A stretch of DNA of 64,000 nt from a virus (lineage: Duplodnaviria; Caudoviricetes). Shown here in pieces: positions 14,029-54,536 of this stretch. The stretch covers positions 30,010 through 94,009 of IMG/VR virus record IMGVR_UViG_3300025858_000016, one strand, 5' to 3'. Within the stretch, counting starts at the first letter, position 1, and each line of letters starts with the position of its first letter. The notes beneath the pieces are model-generated. The model was not told the origin of the DNA and did no database searches. It saw only the letters and a program-made list of their open reading frames with translations. A program made the position numbers and the translations under genes.

Positions 14029-14736
14029 ATGAAAACAAGAACAGATTTAGAGAAAATGACCACTTTATCACTTCGTGAAGAATGTAAAGGTAAGATTAAA
14101 AATTATGGTCGGATGACTAAAGAAGAGATGATCAACGCCCTTATTGAAAATCCTGCTACTGTGACTTCAGAGGAGATTTTTACTGATCGTCATAATCTCC
14201 CTATTAATAAGGGACAAAGAGTAAGTGTTAGAATAGGTGGGAATTGGTTTCCGGGAACAGTTGTTCGCTTGAAGAAAATACAGGGTGATGATTGTGCCTC
14301 TATTCTTTTGGATGGCAAAGATTTACCTAAGCTTTTTTACTCAACAGACATTGATATTGATGTGCCTGGCGATTTAAATAAGAAAGCAACATCTGTTAAT
14401 AAGACAGAGAAAAATACTATTGAAACAGTAATCTCTGAGATTAAAAAAGAAGAAGTTATTGCTTCCTTTACTGTTAGAGTAAAGAAGTATCAAGAATTTC
14501 TTGATTCTGTTGATAAAATGGGATATGAAATTGGACAAGATGTTACATTTGAAGTCTCAAAAAGAAGCAAAATAAATCCTGGGGCTATTTTATCAGGTAA
14601 AATAAAATCTTTTGTTTGGGATCCTCAGGGCAATTGTGCCTTCTTTATAATTAAAGTGGAGGGAGACAGTCGGGAGTTTTATAAGACCCCTAAATCTTTG
14701 TTCAACTTTGCTTCTACCTATTCTCAGAGTAAGTAA
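14029..14736 (+). CDS. hypothetical protein with Rho-N-like N-terminal helix pair and possible SH3/Tudor-like domains
   Basis: LEKMTTLSLREECK..IKNYGRMTKEEMINALIE; GQRVSVRIGGNWFPGTVV. Confidence 0.5.
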   Translation: MKTRTDLEKMTTLSLREECKGKIKNYGRMTKEEMINALIENPATVTSEEIFTDRHNLPINKGQRVSVRIGGNWFPGTVVRLKKIQGDDCASILLDGKDLPKLFYSTDIDIDVPGDLNKKATSVNKTEKNTIETVISEIKKEEVIASFTVRVKKYQEFLDSVDKMGYEIGQDVTFEVSKRSKINPGAILSGKIKSFVWDPQGNCAFFIIKVEGDSREFYKTPKSLFNFASTYSQSK

Positions 14737-14751
14737 TATAAGAGATAGCAG

Positions 14752-14792
14752 TATAGTATAGAGAGACTTTGACAAAGTCTCTCTATACTATA
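14752..14792. repeat. 41-bp inverted repeat with perfect 20-bp arms
   Basis: TATAGTATAGAGAGACTTTG-A-CAAAGTCTCTCTATACTATA. Confidence 0.9.
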
Positions 14793-14870
14793 TAATAAAT
14801 TAGTTTAGAGCTGATTATATTTGATATAGATATTGTGATATGTTAGAGTATATAAATACAACTTTAAGAA

Positions 14871-15665
14871 ATGAGAAAAATATCACATGAGTGCCCTCTA
14901 GCACTTTTATCAGAAAGTCGTAGTTTTAATGACTATGATTATGCACTAGTCCATTTATTTGAACAATATCCACAATATTATCAGTTTTTTGTAGAGTCAT
15001 TAAAGTTAGGTCGTGAAGTAATATTAGATAATTCGATATTTGAACTTGGGAAGTCTTTTGATAATGACCAATTTGCAACATGGGTAGAGAGACTACAGCC
15101 AACTTACTATATTATCCCTGATGTTCTAGAAGATAGTAAGGCTACAATTGAACGTTTACATAATTGGGTATCAAAGTATAATTTTTTGCCTGGAAAGAAA
15201 ATAGGGGTGGTCCAAGGGAAGACATATGAAGATTTAGTAGAGTGTTATCAAGAAATAGATAGATATTGTGATGTTATAGCTATTTCTTTTGACTATAGTT
15301 ATTATGAAAGTATATTTGAACTTACTAATAAATTTAAAAATTGGGTGTATGGGAGACAGTCTTTGATAGTAAAATTAGTGAGAGAGAGAATAATAAATAA
15401 AAAGAAACCTCATCATTTATTAGGGTGTAGTTTACCACAAGAATTTCTTTTTTATCAATCTAATGTCTATGATTTTATTCAATCTATTGATACTTCCTCC
15501 CCTATTGTACATGGTTTGTTAGAGATTTACTATGATCAATATGGGCTAGAGAAGAAGGAGTCTATTAAATTATTTGAATTGATTGATGCAAAAGTTACGG
15601 ATTTACAAAGAGTAGCAATTAATAATAATATTAAGATTTTTAAACAGTTAGTAAATGGGAACTAA
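14871..15665 (+). CDS. DpdA/TGT-like 7-deazaguanine transglycosylase paralogue
   Basis: ILDNS, IIPDVL, GVVQG, HHLLGC, SIDTSSP motifs of the TGT barrel; sits inside the que cluster. Confidence 0.7.
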   Translation: MRKISHECPLALLSESRSFNDYDYALVHLFEQYPQYYQFFVESLKLGREVILDNSIFELGKSFDNDQFATWVERLQPTYYIIPDVLEDSKATIERLHNWVSKYNFLPGKKIGVVQGKTYEDLVECYQEIDRYCDVIAISFDYSYYESIFELTNKFKNWVYGRQSLIVKLVRERIINKKKPHHLLGCSLPQEFLFYQSNVYDFIQSIDTSSPIVHGLLEIYYDQYGLEKKESIKLFELIDAKVTDLQRVAINNNIKIFKQLVNGN

Positions 15666-28708: not shown

Positions 28709-29236
28709 ATGAAAAAGTTGTGTATTGGTATTGATCCTGGTAAAGATGGGTATGTAGTAACATATAATGATGTTACTGGTAACAGAACTATGTTACCTAT
28801 TCCAAAGATAGGAGACAAAGTTGATGTACATGGTATATATGAATTGTTTGGTGTTATAAAAACCACATTTCATGACTATTCTATACAAGTATGTATAGAA
28901 GATGTTCATGCTATATTTGGAGCATCTGCAAAGAGTACTTTTGAATTTGGGTACATTAATGGTATATTAGAGATGGCTATTGTTTCTTGTGGATTTTCAT
29001 ATACTAAAGTAGCCCCTAAAAAGTGGCAATCATTAATGTGGCAAGGTGTACCTATACAGAAGAAAGTATCTTCAACAGGTAAAACTTTAGTTAATAATAC
29101 TAAAGCTATTTCAGAAATGGCAGCAAGAAGATTGTTCCCAGATATGGATTTTCGTCGTACAACAAGGTGCAAAAATAATGATGAAAATCTTATTGATGCA
29201 CTTTTGATATGTGAATATTGTAGGAGAAATTTCTAA
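28709..29236 (+). CDS. RuvC-like Holliday junction resolvase
   Basis: IGIDPGKDG, CIEDV, PKKWQ, DALLI. Confidence 0.8.
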   Translation: MKKLCIGIDPGKDGYVVTYNDVTGNRTMLPIPKIGDKVDVHGIYELFGVIKTTFHDYSIQVCIEDVHAIFGASAKSTFEFGYINGILEMAIVSCGFSYTKVAPKKWQSLMWQGVPIQKKVSSTGKTLVNNTKAISEMAARRLFPDMDFRRTTRCKNNDENLIDALLICEYCRRNF

Positions 29237-29882: not shown

Positions 29883-29911
29883 TTGATAGTTAATATAATA
29901 ATCAATATCCC

Positions 29912-30006
29912 TTATTTATAATCATTATAAATTAAGGATATTTTTAAAAATAATTGATTAATAATTTTGTTTGTGTTAATTATTATATTAATTTTACCGT
30001 GTTAAA
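29912..30006 (+). promoter_or_regulatory. 95-bp promoter module, copy 1 (palindromic box + TTTG...TAATTTTA)
   Basis: 92/95 identical to 51844-51938. Confidence 0.8.
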
Positions 30007-30039
30007 TCATTCAAACATTAATTAAAAAAACTTAAGATC

Positions 30040-31575: not shown

Positions 31576-31648
31576 GGTCTCGTAGCTCAGTGGATAGAGC
31601 AGCAGCCTTCTAAGCTGCGGGTCGTAGGTTCGAATCCTACCGGGGTCA
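31576..31648 (+). tRNA. tRNA-Arg(TCT)
   Basis: GGTCTCG..TAGCTCAGTGGATAGAGC; GCAGC-CTTCTAA-GCTGC; GGTTCGAATCC; CCA not encoded. Confidence 0.95.
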
Positions 31649-31666
31649 CAAGTAAAAACTAAGATC

Positions 31667-33941: not shown

Positions 33942-34175
33942 ATGAATCAGAAAGAAAGAAGAATTTTACAAGAGTTTCCTAAAAAACTTGATGAAATAGT
34001 TAATGAAACTTTTGGTGAAGAAGTTAATTGTACGACAAAACTTAATTTCTTTGAAAATATGAGTTACACTACCTATTTTGAAGCCAAAGGAGAAAGGAGA
34101 AAAGAAATTGAGGCTTTTATTAATGGTTTTATGAAGGGTAATGAGGAATTAAGAACAAGATTAGAACTTGCATAA
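33942..34175 (+). CDS. hypothetical protein
   Basis: ORF track. Confidence 0.55.
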   Translation: MNQKERRILQEFPKKLDEIVNETFGEEVNCTTKLNFFENMSYTTYFEAKGERRKEIEAFINGFMKGNEELRTRLELA

Positions 34176-36520: not shown

Positions 36521-38191
36521 ATGTCATTAAAAGAATATACAATAAGACATCACCTAATTAGTTTTAAAACTGATTATGATATTAACTTCATCACCTCTAT
36601 TAAAAATATTAGAGGCAGAAAATATGATGCAATAAATCATATTTGGTATTGCCCTATTAATTTGATAAATAAAGATGATATTGAAGATTTGATTTTAAAA
36701 TTTGGAATTCTTTGTTCTAATAATAGCGATTGTGATTGGAACACATATTTACTTGAAAATATAGATCTTTTATTAGAACAAAAGATAGACATGTTAGAAC
36801 GGAAAATAGAAGAGTTGAAGTTACCTTGGCTCGTTAGAGATTATCAATTTAATGGTATTGTTTATATGTTATATGCTAAAAGGTGTATTAATGGTAGTGA
36901 TATGGGAACTGGTAAGACTTTTATGTCTATTATGGCTGTTGAAACTGAGAATTTATTCCCATGTATAGTGATATCTCCTACTTCAGTTAAATATTATTGG
37001 GAAAGACAATGGAAATTTGTTAATAAAAATAGATTAATATCAGTTTTGGAGAATAATAAAATTGATTTTAACTCTGATGTATTAATATTTACTTATGGTT
37101 CACTGGGTAATAAGAAAGAAGAAGATGACAAAGTAAAGATTGATATAAAATATAAAGAATTATTAAATATAAGATTTAAATCAATAATTTGTGATGAATC
37201 ACATAACTTAAAATCTAGTAAAACCATAAGATCTAAATCTGTAAGAAAATTATCTAAGAATATTGATTATAGATTTTTTCTTACTGGCACACTTATTATG
37301 AACAGGCCATCAGAGGTTATAAATCAATTGAATTTATTAGATCAATTTAGTGATATTTTTAACTGGAATTATTTTATTGATAGATACTGTGGAGCATATA
37401 TGTCACCATTTGGTTTGAATTACTCAGGGGCAACTAATACATTAGAATTAAATACTATACTTAAAAAATATTGTTATTATCGTGTTGATAAGAAAGAAGC
37501 ATTACCCGACCTACCTAATAGAGTTGAAACTGTGTTGAGTGTTGATATTGATAATATGAAAGAGTATAAACATGCAAATAATGATTTTATCGAATATGTT
37601 AGAGAGAATATGGGTAATATTAAAGCTGAATCTGCTTTACTTGCAGAAACTATTGTTAAGATAAATTCATTGTCATATTTATCAGCTATTGGTAAGATAT
37701 CAAATATAGTAGAATGGGTTGAAGATTTTTTAGAGTCATCTAATGAGAAAATTGTTTTGTTTGGTATACATACAGATATTATAAAAGAATTATCCAGGAA
37801 GTTTAAATGTGATTATATTATAGGAGAAGTAAGTCAAAAGAAACGTCAAAATATAATTGATGATTTTCAGACTAATGATAAACGTATTTTAATAATGAAT
37901 ATTTTAACAGGTGGATTTGGGATAGATGGTTTGCAGAATATTTCTTCTAATATGTTGATTTATGAATTGCCTTGGCGTCCTACTGATATAGAACAGGTTA
38001 TTTCTAGATTAGAACGTAGTGGGCAAAAGAATAGTATTGGTGTTTATTTTATGCTAGGCAATAATACTATAGATATAAAAATTTGGGACATTATTTTACA
38101 GAAAGATAAAATTACTAGTAGTGTTAATAAGGGTGTGGAATCAGATAATAACAATAGATACTTGTATAATCTTATAGGTTCTTATTTATAA
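36521..38191 (+). CDS. SNF2/HARP-like helicase
   Basis: RDYQ, DMGTGKT, CDESH, LTGT, WRP...QVISRLERSGQ. Confidence 0.88.
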   Translation: MSLKEYTIRHHLISFKTDYDINFITSIKNIRGRKYDAINHIWYCPINLINKDDIEDLILKFGILCSNNSDCDWNTYLLENIDLLLEQKIDMLERKIEELKLPWLVRDYQFNGIVYMLYAKRCINGSDMGTGKTFMSIMAVETENLFPCIVISPTSVKYYWERQWKFVNKNRLISVLENNKIDFNSDVLIFTYGSLGNKKEEDDKVKIDIKYKELLNIRFKSIICDESHNLKSSKTIRSKSVRKLSKNIDYRFFLTGTLIMNRPSEVINQLNLLDQFSDIFNWNYFIDRYCGAYMSPFGLNYSGATNTLELNTILKKYCYYRVDKKEALPDLPNRVETVLSVDIDNMKEYKHANNDFIEYVRENMGNIKAESALLAETIVKINSLSYLSAIGKISNIVEWVEDFLESSNEKIVLFGIHTDIIKELSRKFKCDYIIGEVSQKKRQNIIDDFQTNDKRILIMNILTGGFGIDGLQNISSNMLIYELPWRPTDIEQVISRLERSGQKNSIGVYFMLGNNTIDIKIWDIILQKDKITSSVNKGVESDNNNRYLYNLIGSYL

Positions 38192-38202
38192 TGTTTATAA
38201 AT
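38184..38202. promoter_or_regulatory. palindromic operator copy
   Basis: ATTTATAATGTTTATAAAT followed by TAATGATA. Confidence 0.55.
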
Positions 38203-38294
38203 TAATGATAAATTATATTCGTATTTAGATTTTTTATAATTTTATTGTTCCAATTAAAATAAACAATGGTATTAATTAACAGAAAGAAAAACAG

Positions 38295-40702: not shown

Positions 40703-41036
40703 ATATTATATAATTAATCAAAGAGAGAACGTTGTAGACATTTCTAATGATGAGGTGTTTAAAGAATATTTGATATCTAAAGAAGATATTGTTGAACATT
40801 TGAGAGCACAGTTGATTTTTATGAAGGAACATAAAGATTATAGAATAAAACCAATTTTGATAGGTGTTACTACTGAGAAGTTTACTGAACTGGTAAGTCA
40901 TTTAAGTAGTAAGTATAAAGGATTTTTGTATAGTTATTTCGTTAATAGAAATCAGATACCTATATTACTTCAACCAAAAGGTGGTGTAATGATAGTTATA
41001 TTGGATTCTGAAAAAATGGCTAAAAACAATGACTAA
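40695..41036 (+). CDS. hypothetical protein
   Basis: Probable ATG at 40695, overlapping the groEL end. Confidence 0.55.
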   Translation: MNKYYIINQRENVVDISNDEVFKEYLISKEDIVEHLRAQLIFMKEHKDYRIKPILIGVTTEKFTELVSHLSSKYKGFLYSYFVNRNQIPILLQPKGGVMIVILDSEKMAKNND

Positions 41037-44000
41037 AGAAGAAATATTTTCATCAGTATGTGAATATTTTAATGGCGATGAACTAGCTGCTAATGTGTGG
41101 ATAGATAAATATGCATTGAAAGATAAAAATGGTGATATAAAAGAGAAGACACCTGAAGATATGCATAGAAGATTAGCTAAGGAGTTTTCTAGAATAGAGT
41201 CTAACTATCCAAATCCCATTTCTGAAAAGAAGATATTTGAATTGTTTGATAGATTTAGATATATAGTTCCACAGGGATCACCTATGTTTGGGATCGGGAA
41301 TGAATTTTCAATAACTTCTCTTTCCAATTGTTTTGTTATAGATTCTGCTATAGATTCTTATGGTGGTATAATGCGTACAGATGAAGAACAAATACAGTTA
41401 ATGAAACGAAGAGGTGGAGTTGGTCATGATTTATCTAATCTAAGACCGGCTGGGGCTTTAGCTAATAATGCTGCTTTAAATGATATGGCAGGATCAGTGT
41501 TGTATGCTCAGAGATTTTCTAATTCCACTAAAGAAGTAAGACAAGGTGATCGTAGAGGGGCATTGATGTTATCTATTTCTATTAAACATCCCGATGCTGA
41601 AAGATTTATAGATTCAAAATTAGAAAGTGGTAAGATAACAGATGCTAATATATCTGTTCGTATAACAGATGAGTTTATGGGAAGAGTAGTATGTGATGGT
41701 GATTTTTATCAAACTTTTCCTATTGATTTAGAGATACCATATTGTAGTAAAGATTATGATTTAATTAATAAATTAGAGTATAACAAACTACTAAAGGTTG
41801 ATGGTGGGTATATAAAGAAAGTAAAAGCAAGATATCTCTGGGATAAGATAATTAAGAATGCATGGAAATCAGCTGAACCGGGTATCCTCTTTTGGGATAC
41901 TATTATAAGAGAATCACCTGCAGATTGTTATGGAGAAGAGTGGAAGACTAAGTCAACTAATCCATGTTTAACTGGAGATACAATTATTGCTGTTGCTGAT
42001 GGAAGAAATGGTGTTACTATTAAAGAATTAGCTGATAAGGGAAGTAAATTTTTAGTATATTGTGCTGATAAGAATGCTTCTAACGGTAATAGAGGTGGAG
42101 GATGGAAAGTTAATATTAAAGAAGGTATTGCATTTAAAACTGGTATAAGAAAAGTTTTAGAAGTAATTCTTTCTGATGGCTCTTCTTTTAGATGTACTCC
42201 AGATCATTTATTAGCTACTTTTGATGGTAATTATGTTGAAGCAAAAGATTCTTTAGGAGTTAAGTTAGGTAAATTTTATTCTTTTTCTAATAAAAATAAT
42301 GGATCATCATATAGACATATTAATAGTAGATATAATGGGTATTCTAAACAATATAGAATGATTTATGAATATTTTTATGGTTCTTATGATGGTAAATTAT
42401 ATAATATTGATCATATTGATCGTGATTCTACAAATGATTCATTAAATAATTTAAGGTTATTAGATATAAATGAGCATGTTAAAATTACAGATAGAATTGG
42501 AGAATCTAATCCTATTCATAAGATAGTTGGTACAGAACGTTTAAGATTAATGAATAAACGTAAAAATATTTATGCAAATGCTAAAAAATATAATTGGGAT
42601 AATGATAGATTAGAAAATTCTTTAATGTTATTTGATAAGGAATTTGGTAATCTATTAAAAGAATTAGAACCTGAAGATATTAATGTTAATTTAGATGAAT
42701 CTATATATGTAGATAATATTATAGAACTTGCTAAAGAAGAAGTATATGATATTTATGTTGAAGATTATCATAATTTTTATATTATAACTAAAACAGATGA
42801 TGATAAATTCTTAAACAGTTCAGGTTTGTTAGTTCATAATTGTGGAGAGATTCCACTTTGTCCTCAAGACAGTTGTCGATTGATGTCTATTAATCTTTAT
42901 TCATATGTTGTTAATCCATTTGAGAAAGATGCATATTTTAATTTTGATTTATTCAAAGAACATGTAATTATTGCTCAAAGATTAATGGACGATTTAGTAG
43001 ATTTAGAACTTGAGAAGATAAACAGGATACTTGAAAAAATAGAAAATGATCCTGAATCAGATAGTATTAAGAGTGTTGAAAAAGAACTTTGGGAGAATAT
43101 ATTTTATAAAACTCAAGCAGGTCGTAGAACAGGATTAGGAACAACAGGAGAAGGTGATATGTTGGCTGCATTAGGGTTTACATATGGTTCTGGATTAGCT
43201 ATTGATATGAGTGAGAGAGTTCATGAACAATTAGCTATTTCAAGTTATGTATCATCTATTATAATGGCTAAGGAGAGAGAGTCATTTCTTAAGTGGGATT
43301 TTGAATTAGAAAAAAATAATCCATTTGTTAGTAGAGTTATTAATTGGATATCAGATTTTAATTATAGTGATTCTGAATTGGGGAGATTTGATTTAGTTTA
43401 TAAACAATATGGTCGTAGAAATATTTCTAACTTAACTATAGCCCCTACTGGGACTACTAGTATAATGACACAAACTACTTCTGGTATAGAGCCTTGTTTT
43501 GCTGTATTTTATAAACGTAGAAGAAGGACTATAGATAAGAGTAAAGCTACTTTTATTGATGAACATGGTGAGATGTTTGAAGAATATAATGTATTTCATC
43601 ATAAGTTTAAAGACTGGTATGATAAAAATTGGTATAAAACAGATATTAAATTGTTTGATATTGATTATAAAAAACCACTGGAAGATTATACTGATGAAGA
43701 ATTAAATATATTAGTTAGTAAGTCTCCTTATCATAATTCAACTTCATCAGATGTTAATTGGGTTGATAAAGTTAAATTGCAAGGTAGGGTACAAAAGTGG
43801 GTTGATCATTCAATATCTGCAACAACTAATATTCCAGAAAACACTCCTATTAGTGTTGTTGATGATATTTATATGACAGCTTATAAAAGTGGTTGTAAGG
43901 GAATGACAATATATAGAGAAGGATCAAGATCTGGTATATTAGTTAATGATAAGAAAAATAATTTTGAGTATGTTGACGCTGTTAAACGGCCAAAAGAGTT

Positions 44001-44481
44001 GGAGTGTGATATTTATCATAAAGTGGCATTGAAAATAAATTGGATGATTTTGGTAGGTAAATATGAAGGGAAACCATATGAAATATTTGCATTTCCAGAG
44101 TTACCTAATCATATTTTCCCTTATAAGATACAGAAGGGTACTATTAGAAAACTAAAGAGTAGAGTATATAAGTTAGTAGGTGTTGATAAGGAATTTGATA
44201 AATCTTATGAAATTCCTAATATAATTGATCTTATAGAGAATGAAGATCAAGTGGGTACACGTAAGTATTCCATGATGCTTAGACATAAGATAGATCCTAA
44301 GTTTATCGTTTCAGAAATAGAACAATATGCATTGGTTACTAGTTTTGATAAGGTTGTTCAAAGGGTTTTACGTAATTATATAGATAGTGAGTTTATAGAG
44401 TGTCCTGAATGTGGTAGTAAACTACAACCATCAGATGGATGTTGGAAGTGTTTGAATTGTGGGTATTCAAAATGTGGTTAA
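41029..44481 (+). CDS. nrdJ: class II (B12-dependent) ribonucleotide reductase with intein
   Basis: SNCFV, RRGALM, EPG, NP[intein]CGE, RRTGLG, APTGTTS, SGIEP, GCKGMTIYR, C-terminal Zn ribbon. Confidence 0.92.
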   Translation: MTKEEIFSSVCEYFNGDELAANVWIDKYALKDKNGDIKEKTPEDMHRRLAKEFSRIESNYPNPISEKKIFELFDRFRYIVPQGSPMFGIGNEFSITSLSNCFVIDSAIDSYGGIMRTDEEQIQLMKRRGGVGHDLSNLRPAGALANNAALNDMAGSVLYAQRFSNSTKEVRQGDRRGALMLSISIKHPDAERFIDSKLESGKITDANISVRITDEFMGRVVCDGDFYQTFPIDLEIPYCSKDYDLINKLEYNKLLKVDGGYIKKVKARYLWDKIIKNAWKSAEPGILFWDTIIRESPADCYGEEWKTKSTNPCLTGDTIIAVADGRNGVTIKELADKGSKFLVYCADKNASNGNRGGGWKVNIKEGIAFKTGIRKVLEVILSDGSSFRCTPDHLLATFDGNYVEAKDSLGVKLGKFYSFSNKNNGSSYRHINSRYNGYSKQYRMIYEYFYGSYDGKLYNIDHIDRDSTNDSLNNLRLLDINEHVKITDRIGESNPIHKIVGTERLRLMNKRKNIYANAKKYNWDNDRLENSLMLFDKEFGNLLKELEPEDINVNLDESIYVDNIIELAKEEVYDIYVEDYHNFYIITKTDDDKFLNSSGLLVHNCGEIPLCPQDSCRLMSINLYSYVVNPFEKDAYFNFDLFKEHVIIAQRLMDDLVDLELEKINRILEKIENDPESDSIKSVEKELWENIFYKTQAGRRTGLGTTGEGDMLAALGFTYGSGLAIDMSERVHEQLAISSYVSSIIMAKERESFLKWDFELEKNNPFVSRVINWISDFNYSDSELGRFDLVYKQYGRRNISNLTIAPTGTTSIMTQTTSGIEPCFAVFYKRRRRTIDKSKATFIDEHGEMFEEYNVFHHKFKDWYDKNWYKTDIKLFDIDYKKPLEDYTDEELNILVSKSPYHNSTSSDVNWVDKVKLQGRVQKWVDHSISATTNIPENTPISVVDDIYMTAYKSGCKGMTIYREGSRSGILVNDKKNNFEYVDAVKRPKELECDIYHKVALKINWMILVGKYEGKPYEIFAFPELPNHIFPYKIQKGTIRKLKSRVYKLVGVDKEFDKSYEIPNIIDLIENEDQVGTRKYSMMLRHKIDPKFIVSEIEQYALVTSFDKVVQRVLRNYIDSEFIECPECGSKLQPSDGCWKCLNCGYSKCG
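41965..42840 (+). mobile_element. intein (292 aa) with HNH endonuclease in the RNR active site
   Basis: Begins CLTGDT, block B CTPDH, block F VYDIYVEDYHNF, ends LVHN before CGE; internal DHIDRDSTNDSLNNL...EH. Confidence 0.92.
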
Positions 44482-44925: not shown

Positions 44926-44927
44926 TT

Positions 44928-45000
44928 ATTTATAATCATTATAAATTAATGATAAATTAAAAATAAATTTTGTTTGTATTAATTATTATATTAATTTTAA
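44928..45000 (+). promoter_or_regulatory. promoter module (palindromic box + TTTG...TAATTTTA)
   Basis: ATTTATAATCATTATAAAT, then TTTGTTTGT..AATTATTATATTAATTTTA as at 29912. Confidence 0.7.
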
Positions 45001-45024
45001 TATGTTTTAAAGGATTAATAGTCA

Positions 45025-45237
45025 ATGAGTAAAGAAATTGAATTTGGTCGTTTAAGAAATTACGGTATTCAGAAATTGAAGAAACCAACTAGAGGTAAAT
45101 TAGTATTTATTGAAAATGGTAGAGAATCAGTGTTGTATGATGATAAACCGTTTGCTTGGTTGAGTTTTATGAAGAAAGAATTAATAAAACAGGGATACTC
45201 ATTTAAATCTTTAAAAGTTAAATACTATGTCAGTTAA
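45025..45237 (+). CDS. hypothetical protein
   Basis: ORF track. Confidence 0.55.
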   Translation: MSKEIEFGRLRNYGIQKLKKPTRGKLVFIENGRESVLYDDKPFAWLSFMKKELIKQGYSFKSLKVKYYVS

Positions 45238-48332: not shown

Positions 48333-49597
48333 AATGTAGCGGATTTACAAAAAAGTATTATCTTTGCATAAATAAAACTATTTAATAGTATAATGAAGAC
48401 AATTTTTCGGACATATCAATTTGAATTGCAGCCAACACAAGAGCAAAAAGTGTTGTTGGATAAGCATTTTGGTTGTGTTCGGTTTGTGTTCAATCACTTT
48501 TTAAATGAAAGAAAAGAGCAATATCAAGCAGATAAAAAGTCTGATAGTTACTATAAACAGGCTGCTACATTAACCGAACTAAAAAAGAAAGAAGAAACTG
48601 CTTGGCTCAAAGAAGTGAATAGCCAATCATTACAATTTGCTTTAAGATGTTTGGATACTGCTTACGTAAACTTCTTTAGAGGTAACGCTAAGTTTCCACA
48701 ATTTAAGTCAAGGAAAAAGAAAAACTCATTCACAGTTCCACAGTTCGCAAAACTTGAAGTTGGTAGATTTTTTGCACCAAAATTCAAAGAAGGTATTAAA
48801 GTAAATGTTCACCGTGAAGTTAAAGGGGAAATTGGTAAATGCACTTTGAGCAAAACACCAACAGGAAAATATTTCGTATCAATACTATCAGAAGAACAAT
48901 ATCAACCAAAAGAAAAGACTGGTGCTGTTTGTGGAATAGATTTAGGTTTAAAAGACTTTGCTATTACTTCTGATGGTGTCAAATTCAAGAACAACAAATA
49001 CACAAAACAATATGAAAAAGAGTTAGCGAAAGCACAAAAACATCTTTCTCGTAAAGTAAAGGGTAGTAATTCGTTTGAAAAACAAAGACGAAAAACAGCC
49101 TTAATTTACGAGAAGATAACCAACTCACGAATGGATAACTTACACAAGGTATCTCACAAATTGGTAACTGATTATGATATAATCGCATTAGAAGATTTGA
49201 ATGTGAAAGGTATGGTCAAAAACCATAAACTTGCAAAACATATATCAGATGCCAGTTGGGGAACTTTTGTAAGATTACTTGAATACAAAGCAAATTGGAA
49301 TGACAAACAAATTGTTAAAATCAATCGCTGGTATCCAAGTTCAAAAACCTGTTGTGAGTGCGGTTGGATAAATCAAGACTTAAATCTTTCAATAAGAGAA
49401 TGGACTTGCAAAAATGGACACGTATTAGACCGTGACCTTAATGCAGCAAAGAACATTTTTAAAGAAGGATTAAAAATATTAAACTCGGCAGGAACTGTCG
49501 AAAACACGGATGGAGATGGTGTAAGAAGTAGTAATACTCAACTATCTACGAAGTCCGAAGCCCAACCCATCAGCTTTGCTGTGGGTGGGTAGTTCAC
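48325..49597 (+). mobile_element. IS200/IS605-family non-autonomous element (tnpB only); left end approximate
   Basis: tnpB ORF; right-end hairpin GCCCAACCCA...TGGGTGGGT and terminal TTCAC at 49593-49597; own TATCTTTG promoter box. Confidence 0.8.
48393..49592 (+). CDS. tnpB: RNA-guided endonuclease TnpB
   Basis: FGCVRFVFN, GIDLGLK, IALEDLNVKGM, SSKTCCECG, DRDLNAAKNI. Confidence 0.95.
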   Translation: MKTIFRTYQFELQPTQEQKVLLDKHFGCVRFVFNHFLNERKEQYQADKKSDSYYKQAATLTELKKKEETAWLKEVNSQSLQFALRCLDTAYVNFFRGNAKFPQFKSRKKKNSFTVPQFAKLEVGRFFAPKFKEGIKVNVHREVKGEIGKCTLSKTPTGKYFVSILSEEQYQPKEKTGAVCGIDLGLKDFAITSDGVKFKNNKYTKQYEKELAKAQKHLSRKVKGSNSFEKQRRKTALIYEKITNSRMDNLHKVSHKLVTDYDIIALEDLNVKGMVKNHKLAKHISDASWGTFVRLLEYKANWNDKQIVKINRWYPSSKTCCECGWINQDLNLSIREWTCKNGHVLDRDLNAAKNIFKEGLKILNSAGTVENTDGDGVRSSNTQLSTKSEAQPISFAVGG

Positions 49598-51843: not shown

Positions 51844-51938
51844 TTATTTATAATCATTATAAATTAAGGATATTTTTAAAAATAATTGACCAAAAATTTT
51901 GTTTGTGTTAATTATTATATTAATTTTACCGTGTTAAA
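51844..51938 (+). promoter_or_regulatory. 95-bp promoter module, copy 2
   Basis: 92/95 identical to 29912-30006. Confidence 0.8.
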
Positions 51939-51953
51939 GAAACAATATAGATT

Positions 51954-52151
51954 ATGGAAACAATTAAAACAAAACAGGAACAGAATAATTTGTACAATAT
52001 AACTGATTCGATGGGAAGAAAGACCGACGTTTATTATTGTGCATCAAATATTGATGAAGCATACAAAATGTTCAAAGATGATAAAGTCAACTTCTCAAAA
52101 TATTATTACGGTAAATTGAGAAGATGTTATAATGGAGGGGTAAGAGGGTAA
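51954..52151 (+). CDS. hypothetical protein
   Basis: ORF track. Confidence 0.55.
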   Translation: METIKTKQEQNNLYNITDSMGRKTDVYYCASNIDEAYKMFKDDKVNFSKYYYGKLRRCYNGGVRG

Positions 52152-52183
52152 TCATTCAAACAATAATTAAAAATCTAAGCAAA

Positions 52184-52432
52184 ATGAAAACAACAATCAA
52201 TGATTTAGCCGCAGTACTTAAAGAGAAATTTTCAGGAAAAACTTTCGACCCTTGTACCAGAAGAAATAAGATTCCAAGTAAAGGTTGGTGTGTAGTTGGT
52301 TATGCCGCAATTACAAAAGCTATAAAGCAAGCCGGGTTACCTTATAACCAATTTTGGAGCGGATCAAACCCTACTCCATCGACACAAGCCCCTATTGAAA
52401 TAGTCGTGTTTGCACAGTCATTGTGTTTTTAA
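52184..52432 (+). CDS. hypothetical protein
   Basis: ORF with the repeated TTCAAACAATAATTAAAAA leader. Confidence 0.55.
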   Translation: MKTTINDLAAVLKEKFSGKTFDPCTRRNKIPSKGWCVVGYAAITKAIKQAGLPYNQFWSGSNPTPSTQAPIEIVVFAQSLCF

Positions 52433-52517
52433 AATCTGTGTTTTCTGAAAAGTTTTGCAGCGTAGGTGATAACTATAAAACATCATTTATTCAAACAATA
52501 ATTAAAAAGTTAAGATC

Positions 52518-52757
52518 ATGTTACTAAGTGATGAATTACTGAAAATTGGACAGTTTGCCAACCCAAAGAACAATCTGTCAATGTATCAACAAGAATCGGT
52601 GATGATAACCAGAGTCAGAGAGGCTCATAAGAAAGGAAGTTCTATTAAGCAACTGTATAATATTGTAAACATGGTTTGCAATCAGTTGAACAAACAGGGT
52701 TACAACTACTTTAATGTCGATCATTTCTTTGTTAAAAATCAGGAAGGAGTAATGTAA
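52518..52757 (+). CDS. hypothetical protein
   Basis: ORF with the repeated leader. Confidence 0.55.
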   Translation: MLLSDELLKIGQFANPKNNLSMYQQESVMITRVREAHKKGSSIKQLYNIVNMVCNQLNKQGYNYFNVDHFFVKNQEGVM

Positions 52758-52849
52758 TGGAAGCAATGTTGACAATAGTTGTATTCGTTGCACTGGTAAT
52801 TGGTGCATTTTCAAGTGTCGATCCTATTGAAGTAGATGACGAGTTATGA
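52757..52849 (+). CDS. 30-aa membrane peptide (not in the track)
   Basis: MEAMLTIVVFVALVIGAFSSVDPIEVDDEL; start and stop overlap both neighbours. Confidence 0.5.
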   Translation: MEAMLTIVVFVALVIGAFSSVDPIEVDDEL

Positions 52850-53031
52850 AAATTAATAAAGAAGAATTAGACAAATTGAGTATGGCAGATTTTATAAAGA
52901 GGAAAAAGGAGATTGAAGCACATAATGCAAAGTTATCTGGTCTGATGGTGAAATTGGTAGACACGATAGACTTAAAATCTATTACTCATAGCGAGTGTGC
53001 CAGTTCGACTCTGGCTCAGACTACAAAATAA
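52846..53031 (+). CDS. hypothetical protein reading through tRNA-Leu
   Basis: ATGA-coupled start; 3' half overlaps the tRNA. Confidence 0.4.
   Translation: MKINKEELDKLSMADFIKRKKEIEAHNAKLSGLMVKLVDTIDLKSITHSECASSTLAQTTK
52939..53023 (+). tRNA. tRNA-Leu(TAA)
   Basis: GGTCTGA/TCAGACT acceptor, TGGTGAAATTGGTAGACAC, ATAGA-CTTAAAA-TCTAT, long variable arm, GCCAGTTCGACTCTGGC. Confidence 0.93.
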
Positions 53032-53290
53032 GTTCTTTGAAATTCCTGATTGAAGCAAACAAATTATAGAGCCTGCTTGGTACGACATATAGTCAAAAGT
53101 TATAATTAGACCTCTTGCAAAGGTCGTTGTTTGTGGATAGATAAAAGTTGACAAAGTGTTACATATTCAGTTGTCCAGATGCTCGGCGCAACCGACGGTG
53201 GGTAGCAGACTGTAGATTAGACTCAGATATGTATCACAGAGGTTAATGTATTATTCCGTAGGCATAACGGTCAGGAATTTTTAAAGGACT
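53030..53290 (+). ncRNA. unassigned ~260-nt multibranch structured RNA (RNA-1)
   Basis: Closing stem AATTCCTGA/TCAGGAATT, many internal helices, no ORF, higher GC than the genome. Confidence 0.7.
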
Positions 53291-53291
53291 A

Positions 53292-53680
53292 AAGTTCTTT
53301 GAATAATTGAAAATCTTTGGCTAAACATTGATCCTTTGTGAATAAAACTATCTCACAATAGTAATTATCTGTGTCATGCGCATGTCGCTTGTAAGTAAGC
53401 TAAAACTGGCAGATAGATTCACATAAAGATGATAATCCTGAATTGACAGGATGTTGAATATGCAACATACGATGGCAGAAATGCTGATAGGAGTTGTAGG
53501 CGTAAAAACATCAATGGAGTAATCCTATACGTGTTGTTCCCTTGAGAAAGGATACCATGATTCAATTCTTGATATGTAAAAATGGCATATCCAACACGAA
53601 TGAGTTCTCAGCATGACCCTACTACTCTCGTAAGAGATACGTGGAATAAATTTCAGTGAGTCTGAAGATAGAGGGTGCTA
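53292..53680 (+). ncRNA. unassigned ~370-390-nt ornate RNA with two predicted pseudoknots (RNA-2)
   Basis: About 10 helices, GNRA tetraloops, TGAGAA/TTCTCA loop pairing; no ORF. Confidence 0.72.
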
Positions 53681-53703
53681 AAACAATTTATAAAACAAAT
53701 ATT

Positions 53704-54021
53704 ATGACAACAGATAAATTAGAAAAAGCTAATGAATTAAAGAAGACTATTGATGACTATAAGAATAGAATTCGAGCATCAGTTTCTTTCAGGGATGAGA
53801 CATGTTCTTTAGTTAAGGACTGTTCTTTAAGTATTCAGACAGTTGTTGTGACTAAAGAAGGTGGGAAAGAATATACATCTGATAATTTTGGGACTGCTAA
53901 TGGTATATCTGAAGAATTAAAAAAGAAAGTAGTTGAAGAGATTCAAGAATGTGCTATTCGTATTGCAAGGATTTTTGAGAGAGAGATTAAGCATTTGGAA
54001 GAAGAATTCGAATCACTTTAG
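53704..54021 (+). CDS. hypothetical protein
   Basis: ATG at 53704 (the track's GTG start lies within RNA-2). Confidence 0.6.
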   Translation: MTTDKLEKANELKKTIDDYKNRIRASVSFRDETCSLVKDCSLSIQTVVVTKEGGKEYTSDNFGTANGISEELKKKVVEEIQECAIRIARIFEREIKHLEEEFESL

Positions 54022-54059
54022 GATTTTTAAATAAAGTGATTAGTAAAGTTCTTTGAAGA

Positions 54060-54125
54060 TATTGTTATATTGTTGACGTTATTTGTAACTATGTTTGGAC
54101 CGGGGTTCGATTCCCCGCAGCTCCA
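54060..54125 (+). ncRNA. ssrA: tmRNA acceptor piece (permuted gene)
   Basis: GGAC-CGGGG-TTCGATT-CCCCG-CAGCTCC-A; upstream part is complementary to the coding piece. Confidence 0.9.
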
Positions 54126-54155
54126 CATAATTCGCCTAATGCGTAATCGGTGAAC

Positions 54156-54289
54156 AGATAATAAACGATGTTGTTCTCGAGAAGAACTGAGGAAAGTTTG
54201 ATCCAAGAAGTAACCCATAATCCAGGGAGAGGTGGTTTTTTATATTTTTTTATACCCACCAGATGATGCCAGGTGATCGTTTATTATCT
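54156..54289 (+). ncRNA. structured RNA nested in the tmRNA intervening segment (RNA-3)
   Basis: Perfect 14-bp closing stem, three internal hairpins, GAGGAAAGT motif. Confidence 0.6.
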
Positions 54290-54297
54290 TCTTATTA

Positions 54298-54454
54298 GGG
54301 GCTGACTGGTTTAGACAGCATAAGTTGTGGATAAAAGAGATATAACAGTGCAAAATAGATGGCAACATCTTTACACAAAAACAGGAAATGAGATTAGCTG
54401 CATAAGCTGAATTTTATTTCTGATTAGGGTGGCCTGTCTAAGATAGACCACCCT
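54298..54454 (+). ncRNA. ssrA: tmRNA coding piece; tag (A)GNIFTQKQEMRLAA at 54361-54405
   Basis: 5' GGGGCTG pairs with CAGCTCC including G3-U70; tag frame ends LAA-TAA inside a hairpin. Confidence 0.9.
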
Positions 54455-54463
54455 TCTTATTTA
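54426..54463 (+). terminator. terminator hairpin ending the RNA island
   Basis: AGGGTGG.CTGTC-TAA-GATAG.CCACCCT then TCTTATTT. Confidence 0.7.
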
Positions 54464-54520
54464 TAATGAATAAAAATTAATGATAAATATAAAAGTTATA
54501 TTTATTTTTATTAATTTTAT
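54459..54520 (+). promoter_or_regulatory. degenerate promoter module
   Basis: ATTTATAATGAATAAAAAT-TAATGATA ... TATTAATTTTA. Confidence 0.5.
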
Positions 54521-54536
54521 GGCGTTAAAATAGAAT

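Follow-up and report, generated by a model that had tools for sequence, protein, structure and literature searches.

Ribosomal RNA (rrn) operons carry boxA, the NusB-S10 binding site of rrn antitermination, at standard positions in their leaders and spacers (PMC10931766, PMC5725501). The rrn antitermination complex consists of NusB-S10, NusA, NusG, SuhB, and S4, and the helix formed between the leader and the trailer of 16S is cut by RNase III (PMC10931766, PMC10250234, PMC5725501); the same three papers supply the published background on boxA, NusB-S10, and Rho on which we draw. Lambdoid phages likewise carry a host-type boxA in their transcripts for a Nus-modified polymerase, at nut sites that combine boxA with boxB and the N protein and that serve read-through of early terminators into protein genes. 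The tRNA cluster of phage T4 similarly joins tRNA genes to two cotranscribed stable RNAs (species 1 and 2) of unknown function, the precursors of which are cut by host RNases; we know of no boxA or rrn-like leader-trailer architecture in that cluster and, to our knowledge, T4 has no transfer-messenger RNA (tmRNA). Two-piece tmRNAs are known from OM43 phage Melnitz and from pelagiphages (PMC9004378; tmRNA database, PMC11915505). Antitermination by boxA is established, as are nut sites in lambdoid phages, clusters of tRNA genes in phages, and two-piece tmRNAs encoded by phages (PMC9004378, PMC11915505); the literature that we searched contains no description of a host-type boxA heading phage stable-RNA genes. 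Here we analyze such an arrangement in IMG/VR virus record IMGVR_UViG_3300025858_000016, within a stretch of 64,000 nucleotides (nt) (positions 30,010 to 94,009 of the record; hereafter the window, in whose coordinates all positions are given). A tRNA-Leu gene, two orphan segments (RNA-1 and RNA-2), one small protein gene, and a permuted tmRNA gene lie within 1.5 kb of one another, and three copies of a 12-mer, AAGTTCTTTGAA, stand among them.

Judged by its sequence and its position, this 12-mer is the rrn boxA of the Bacteroidota. An earlier note on this DNA had called it boxA-like, correctly, and the match proves to be to the host phylum's own rrn boxA. There are exactly three copies in 64 kb, all on the plus strand and all preceding untranslated segments (Table 1). 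When one mismatch is allowed the window holds 8 matches, a number reached in none of 100 shuffles. The punctuation by an identical 12-mer, as first described, is confirmed; the 1-mismatch copies at 34044 and 35246 lie within coding sequence. Across the whole 94-kb record, the 9-mer core has one further plus-strand copy, inside an open reading frame (ORF), and all three noncoding copies are those of the cluster.

We compared the motif with host 16S loci fetched around binned motif-carrying genomes, which yielded 27 genomes of the phylum with enough leader sequence. The element GTTCTTTGA(N), with at most one mismatch to GTTCTTTGAA, lies 82 to 217 nt upstream of 16S in 26 of these 27 genomes, and GTTCTTTGA recurs downstream of 16S, in the 16S-23S spacer, in every one (27/27). 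The exact 13-mer AAAGTTCTTTGAA is present in two genomes, one of which shares 21 consecutive bases with copy 2 of the phage; the flank of copy 2, AAAGTTCTTTGAATAATTGAA, is identical in one host rrn leader (locus L136). The motif falls ~50 nt downstream of the TAnnTTTG promoter in host rrn leaders and is therefore transcribed there. The gammaproteobacterial boxA consensus, GYTCTTTAANA (PMC5725501), differs from the motif of the phage and the host phylum at one specified position. Since the two segments and the tmRNA each start with an exact boxA of the host phylum, the phage probably relies on host machinery for rRNA transcription and processing in making RNAs of its own.

The assignment of this uncultured phage to a host in the Bacteroidota is supported by several lines of sequence evidence. 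Contigs that carry both the motif and a homologous tmRNA were binned to Bacteroidales and Prolixibacteraceae (GTDB genomes). A Shine-Dalgarno-like motif is found in only 3 of 62 phage ORFs, under the 9% background, and the pattern of the tmRNA T-arm and acceptor without an encoded CCA was found mostly in GENNYALAA-type tmRNAs among the matches listed; the scarcity of Shine-Dalgarno motifs and the tRNA-like half without CCA both support the assignment.

A second resemblance to rrn operons lies in the packaging of RNA-1. In the predicted fold, RNA-1 is enclosed, like host 16S, by a helix between a boxA-containing leader and a trailer, and the next boxA follows at once. The closing helix is ~22 bp long, its 5' arm being copy 1 plus the next ten bases; this leader/trailer duplex has an energy of −32.5 kcal/mol (z −3.9), equalled by 1 of 300 shuffles. 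Host rrn loci behave in the same manner: base pairing links the leader to the 140 nt that follow 16S in 27 of 28 loci (z −3.3 to −12.4 versus shuffled trailers), and the paired leader span starts at or before boxA in 25 of the 27 loci that pair. The segment between copies 2 and 3, which comprises RNA-2 and the ORF, shows weaker leader/trailer pairing (z −2.4), and pairing of copy 3 with the tmRNA 3' tail or with the intervening segment was not significant. Every boxA comes 1 to 5 nt after the end of a helix: for copy 1 the acceptor stem of the tRNA, for copy 2 the helix that closes RNA-1, and for copy 3 a perfect hairpin of 10 bp. No boxC was recognized beside any of the three copies.

Modeled folds support RNA-1 as a folded element with a strand-specific fold, if one without conservation. 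Its minimum free energy is −74.4 kcal/mol (z −4.2), compared with −55.2 kcal/mol (z −2.5) for the reverse strand. In a comparison of 229 nonoverlapping 270-nt windows it ranks second from the bottom in energy and fourth in z, which makes it unusual but not unique. Two windows elsewhere, 14685-14954 and 28725-28994, have stronger folds relative to shuffles (z −7.3 and −5.1). We entertain, tentatively, the idea that RNA-1 represents a new family of stable phage RNAs, built like a 16S in miniature and passed, along with the tRNA and the tmRNA, through host rRNA synthesis and maturation (Nus-modified polymerase, RNase III). Such an RNA could act on the rRNA pipeline or on the ribosome itself, perhaps by drawing off factors for rRNA processing or assembly as a decoy.

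Copy 3 heads a circularly permuted tmRNA (54066-54405) that scores 62.3 bits against RF04321, for which the cutoff is 47 bits, and that ARAGORN also calls as permuted, with the tag GNIFTQKQEMRLAA. The T-arm and the 3' strand of the acceptor come first, followed by a 172-nt intervening segment, GGGGCUG, and the tag ORF; GGGGCUG pairs with CAGCUCC in the acceptor, giving G3:U70. The intervening segment, put forward earlier as a third nested RNA (RNA-3), contains a lineage-specific domain closed by a perfect 14-bp stem (stem I5); in relatives the segment measures 45 to 187 nt, and only its 5' part is conserved. Next to the 3' end of the tmRNA acceptor piece, that part forms a small hairpin, seen across the clade, whose loop reads (U)CGCC(A). 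Here the hairpin (54131-54154) reads UUCGCC / UAAUGCGUAAUC / GGUGAA, and in relative L123 (reverse strand) it reads UUAGCC / CAAUGCGUAAUC / GGCUAA; 11 of the 12 loop positions are equal, and the stem carries a compensatory change of C-G to A-U. This hairpin is likely a processing signal rather than a nested gene. A further block, ATATTGTTA, pairs with the part of the tmRNA coding piece that immediately precedes the resume codon; in relatives L120 and L121 the sequence has changed but the pairing persists.

Genomes of the host order encode a one-piece tmRNA in all 26 cases sampled (L153-L178), which suggests that the permuted tmRNAs form a separate, phage-associated permutation lineage. In the phage permuted tmRNA clade (L338-L407), ~26 unique sequences from phages linked to the Bacteroidota bear tags of the form GK[TSVIL][IV].... 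As in Melnitz and the pelagiphages, a lytic-type phage carries a circularly permuted ssrA, and one precursor would be split by tRNA-processing enzymes. Unlike theirs, this tmRNA comes from a phage whose host phylum uses a one-piece form, has a Bacteroidota-like tRNA-like half, is headed by boxA, and is not linked to a riboswitch.

The association of boxA with the tmRNA extends to relatives. In L037, found through its portal (71% portal identity), a tRNA-Gln is followed by four bases, ATGTTCTTTGAA, and a homologous permuted tmRNA. A pattern scan for GTTCTTTGAA 25 to 50 nt before a tmRNA T-arm returned five more contigs from IMG/VR (the permuted tmRNA is complete in four, and in the fifth it runs off the end of the contig) and three from GTDB genomes, two of them the binned contigs cited above. 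All told, homologous permuted tmRNAs on nine other phage or metagenome-assembled contigs are preceded by the same motif, at −49 to −54 relative to the T-arm. A viral scan that was independent of boxA (T-arm, acceptor, then TCGCC) gave an unbiased sample of the phage clade and recovered 42 permuted tmRNAs, ~26 of them unique, most with tags that start GK(T/S)I; a metagenome scan without boxA in the pattern gave mostly host one-piece tmRNAs among the matches listed and is a biased sample of the phage clade. Some host one-piece ssrA genes have a boxA-like element at about −15: 3 of 25 within a single order, and 3 of 58 among those sampled from metagenomes. On these counts, boxA is an optional accessory of tmRNA leaders in the Bacteroidota and its phages; what is distinctive in this phage, going by the sequences compared, is the triplication of boxA and its use before segments that are not tmRNAs.

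Some smaller observations concern these leaders. The host ssrA elements (L153, L158, L170, L216, L232, and L287) sit 14 to 16 nt upstream of the mature 5' end, with the TAnnTTTG promoter on one side and the RNase P site on the other. In L121/L133 (reverse strand), another boxA-like sequence, AAGTTCTTTTAA, stands between the tmRNA terminator and the protein gene that comes next. We also considered GTTC[AG]TTGA, at −33 to −35 in other clade members, as a boxA and rejected it; it aligns instead with the tmRNA body (TTGTTGACG).

The setting of the cluster is consistent with a single transcript. An element of ~100 nt, in which a perfect palindrome, TTTATAATCATTATAAA, leads into an AT-rich block that is conserved between copies, has five copies in the window, all of them intergenic, and is probably a shared operator and promoter of the phage. 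One copy, at 51844, likely heads the transcription unit, and another, at 54457, comes directly after the cluster terminator. The small ORFs downstream of the first copy run end to end and without a gap into tRNA-Leu; none has a PHROG or Pfam match. Neither a Bacteroidota-type promoter (TAnnTTTG) nor a convincing sigma-70 promoter was found inside the cluster. The unit closes with a terminator-like hairpin (54426-54454; −18.2 kcal/mol, z −3.8), and the tmRNA relatives have an equivalent GC-rich hairpin and U run after the tag. Given the flanking promoter-like elements, the packed ORFs, the lack of an internal promoter, and the one terminator, the simplest reading is cotranscription from ~51.9 to 54.46 kb, as one transcription unit of ~51.85 to 54.46 kb. 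We infer an accessory transcription unit of a Bacteroidota phage in which small translated ORFs are followed by a mostly untranslated stretch of ~1.5 kb. Much of what the earlier note had laid out stands: ARAGORN and Rfam confirm the tRNA-Leu and the permuted tmRNA, and one small protein gene and a closing terminator lie on the same strand; its analogy to an rRNA operon is borne out by the identity of the 12-mer, by the 16S-like helix of RNA-1, and by a unit set between two promoter-like repeats with one terminator.

Table 1. Features of the cluster and its flanks, in window coordinates
Feature	Position	Strand	Basis and remarks
Repeated intergenic element: palindrome TTTATAATCATTATAAA and AT-rich promoter-like block	51844..51945	+	Sequence repeats
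All five copies of the palindrome element	29911-30010, 38179-38260, 44926-45030, 51844-51945, 54457-54530		
Small ORFs (five or six), tightly packed	51954..52938	+	ORF list
tRNA-Leu, anticodon UAA, class II, CCA not encoded	52939..53024	+	ARAGORN; Rfam RF00005, 56.6 bits
boxA copy 1	53030..53041	+	Exact 12-mer; 5 nt past tRNA; 5' arm of RNA-1 closing helix
RNA-1, orphan folded segment	53031..53290	+	Fold; helix arms 53031-53052 / 53267-53290
boxA copy 2	53292..53303	+	Exact 12-mer; starts 1-2 nt after RNA-1 trailer arm
RNA-2, 400 nt, no ORF	53304..53703	+	ORF list; fold
Small protein gene P0001, 105 aa, coiled-coil-like	53704..54021	+	ORF; homologues
Perfect 10-bp hairpin at ORF end, 4 nt before copy 3, boxB-like position	54011..54041	+	Local fold −16 kcal/mol, z −2.3
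boxA copy 3	54046..54057	+	Exact 12-mer; ends 2-3 nt before first tmRNA helix
tmRNA acceptor piece: 3' half of tRNA-like domain, T-arm, CAGCUCC-A, no CCA	54058..54125	+	RF04321 alignment
tmRNA intervening segment (RNA-3 of the earlier note)	54126..54297	+	Fold z −0.5
tmRNA coding piece: GGGGCUG acceptor 5' strand, tag ORF 54361-54405 (GNIFTQKQEMRLAA, stop)	54298..54425	+	ARAGORN; RF04321
Intrinsic-terminator-like hairpin and U-rich tail, closing the unit	54426..54466	+	Fold

RNA-2 and the protein gene that follows it are less readily placed. The 53025-53703 region has no credible plus-strand ORF under table 11, TAG=Q, or TGA=W. RNA-2 is 15.5% C, versus 10.6% genome-wide, and its GC skew of 0.11 is among the lowest 6% of windows, so that its base composition is nearer to that of tRNA and tmRNA than to that of coding DNA. 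This composition fits an RNA gene, a long P0001 leader, or recently acquired DNA; RNA-2 may be the extended 5' leader of the small gene or else an RNA of unstructured or unfamiliar kind. P0001 has a few relatives of similar size (homologues of ~100 amino acids at 34 to 52% identity), which make up a small family outside Pfam and PHROG. In two other phages (L006 and L416) the homologue is part of an ordinary protein operon, and neither boxA nor RNA genes are found close by, which argues that P0001 is a passenger rather than an RNA-specific factor.

Of the three extra RNAs in the original proposal, then, RNA-1 is upheld by its fold, while RNA-2 (z −0.3) and RNA-3 fold as shuffles do. The covariance search against Rfam identified the tRNA and the tmRNA and left RNA-1, RNA-2, and RNA-3 unmatched, both at the gathering cutoff and at E values of up to 10. 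A "distant" blastn search of the cluster against 50,697 phage records matched only the tRNA, and nhmmer searches with RNA-1, RNA-2, and the intervening segment found no homologue in 1.6 Mb and then 3.3 Mb of fetched related loci. The homologue collection proposed for the three RNAs thus came back empty from Rfam, the phage records, and the related loci.

The best explanation of the locus, in which we have moderate confidence, is a Nus-antiterminated, host-processed unit with a boxA before each untranslated module. In the mechanism that we propose, translation of the small ORFs would protect the first kilobase of the transcript. The next 1.5 kb is mostly untranslated and relatively C rich, and each untranslated module begins with a copy of the boxA of the host phylum's rrn operons. 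By analogy with rrn operons, nascent boxA RNA would bind host NusB-S10, which together with NusA, NusG, and SuhB would convert RNA polymerase to a Rho-resistant, RNA-chaperoning form able to traverse the untranslated region as far as the terminator that follows the tmRNA. A search of the phage turned up no NusG, NusB, or SmpB of its own, so host factors would serve. RNase P and 3' trimming would free the tRNA and the two tmRNA pieces, and RNase III would cut the boxA-leader/trailer helix around RNA-1, as it does for 16S. A fresh boxA would follow each cut point, like the spacer boxA of rrn operons, and the finished tmRNA would rescue stalled ribosomes.

Set against rrn operons (PMC10931766, PMC10250234, PMC5725501), the cluster has the same boxA sequence, repeated before successive untranslated RNAs and placed at the base of a long helix that encloses a folded RNA, with the next boxA after the trailer and with a tRNA alongside. 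It differs in its cargo, which in place of rRNA comprises the tRNA and the tmRNA, the two orphan segments, and one protein gene, in having three boxAs within 1 kb, and in having no identified boxC. In contrast to lambdoid nut sites, no N-like protein or boxB-N pair is evident here, the phage has no NusG or NusB of its own, and the purpose that we propose is the making of stable RNAs. To the known systems, this locus would add a mimic of the leader-trailer helix around an orphan RNA.

Several observations weigh against this explanation. The plus strand of the phage is generally G rich and C poor, which makes it a poor Rho substrate; the cluster is relatively C rich. In the predicted folds, boxA copies 1 and 3 can be sequestered in helices that would compete with NusB-S10 binding. 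RNA-1 contains a terminator-like hairpin (53109-53125), RNA-2 folds no better than its shuffles, and neither segment, having no homologue, gains support from covariation. In this tmRNA clade boxA is carried by a minority, 4 exact copies (at −49 to −54) and 1 variant among the ~26 unique sequences, and so is not needed to make this tmRNA; the remaining members start directly after a TAnnTTTG promoter or a tRNA, and an upstream tRNA is common. Last, we know of no experimental test of boxA function in the Bacteroidota.

The main rival, which we think unlikely but well short of negligible, is that boxA belongs solely to the tmRNA (or tRNA-tmRNA) leader and that recombination at this short sequence inserted RNA-1 and RNA-2 with its gene, duplicating the motif as it did so; RNA-1 and RNA-2 would then be spacer DNA or ordinary untranslated leaders rather than stable RNAs. 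L037, where tRNA-Gln, one motif, and the tmRNA are directly adjacent, looks like the empty site that such a history predicts, and none of the relatives that we examined has RNA-1, RNA-2, or the small gene. The similarity between copies 2 and 3 extends upstream, through AGGA(A)TTTTTAAA, as would be expected after duplication. The small gene is found in other places with no RNA context, and the low GC skew of the region would suit recent acquisition as well. An origin by insertion is quite possible, yet it is compatible with function. That all three copies and their A-rich 5' flank match the host rrn consensus exactly speaks for selection over decay, and neither the strand-specific fold of RNA-1 nor its rrn-like helix is expected of junk.

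The other readings fit the data less well. The 12-mer might be a promoter element or a nuclease or processing site (e.g., for RNase E, past the tRNA and ahead of each RNA) in place of an antitermination signal, a view to which we assign a low probability. It does follow tRNA 3' ends by 5 nt in three phages (this one, L037, and L123), precedes the mature tmRNA structure by 2 to 15 nt in phages and some hosts, and is single stranded and U rich. We reject the promoter version, as the 12-mer matches neither the Bacteroidota TAnnTTTG −7 box nor a sigma-70 pair and is itself transcribed in host rrn leaders; its presence in both rrn leader and spacer is the textbook position of boxA, with which a processing role could coexist. 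Least probable of all, and by our estimate very unlikely, is that RNA-1 represents a miniature mobile element or cassette, ending in inverted repeats and flanked by a duplication of its target, a notion invited by its length of 260 bp, its inverted termini of ~22 bp, and the flanking direct repeats of 12 to 14 nt. The left "target duplication" lies inside the inverted repeat, which is unusual for transposons, and RNA-1 is single copy, with none elsewhere in the genome or in the 3.3 Mb of related loci. The cassettes at 34.6-35.4 kb have ends (GTTAT.. / ..ATAAC) that are unrelated to the 12-mer, and the 1-mismatch 12-mers are coding; we rejected the integron-like or miniature inverted-repeat transposable element reading on these grounds. 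The antiterminated, host-processed unit therefore remains the explanation that we prefer.

The tRNA and the tmRNA plausibly have ordinary roles in translation support. The tRNA-Leu(UAA), a cloverleaf with a long variable arm, reads TTA (UUA), the commonest Leu codon of the phage (54% of its Leu codons). The other phage tRNA, Arg(UCU) at 31576-31649, reads AGA, likewise the commonest Arg codon (61%); it stands singly, between translated genes, without a boxA. The suggestion that the cluster controls host translation is accordingly plausible only in the limited sense of a tRNA for the commonest Leu codon and a ribosome-rescue RNA, and a role in countering RNA-targeting defenses is not supported. 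The last of the packed small ORFs (52846-53031; 61 amino acids) reads through the tRNA-Leu gene, with its stop 7 nt beyond the tRNA; cleavage of the transcript by RNase P would make this ORF a non-stop mRNA, beside a tmRNA gene.

Should the boxA copies function as in rrn operons, nonlambdoid phages would be able to express stable RNAs through host rRNA antitermination and processing, a means of host takeover that is not described in the literature we searched. A host-type boxA could serve as a simple sequence flag for unannotated phage RNA genes, with RNA-1 as a candidate new RNA. The locus is, moreover, a compact natural construct, with three boxAs, a leader-trailer helix, and reporter RNAs, for the study of Nus-dependent transcription in the Bacteroidota, where it has barely been studied. 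It also documents a phage-borne lineage of permuted tmRNAs in a phylum whose cells use a one-piece form.

The wider genome is that of a typical large lytic phage. The source record is a 94-kb IMG/VR virus estimated to be ~86% complete, and the window, at ~30% G+C, encodes a DNA polymerase, a ribonucleotide reductase, an NAD ligase, SbcC, a portal, and tail genes, with essentially all of its long ORFs on the plus strand, as are all of the cluster features (tRNA, 12-mers, RNA segments, ORF, tmRNA, and terminator). A TnpB/IS605-type transposase gene is present at 48393-49592 (phrog_506, E value of 5e-133), and the 270-nt window at 48975-49244, inside this gene, has a fold with z −4.8 that may relate to a guide RNA. 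The large subunit of ribonucleotide reductase (41029-44481) contains an HNH endonuclease domain at residues 414-486, which may be an intein or a homing-endonuclease insertion.

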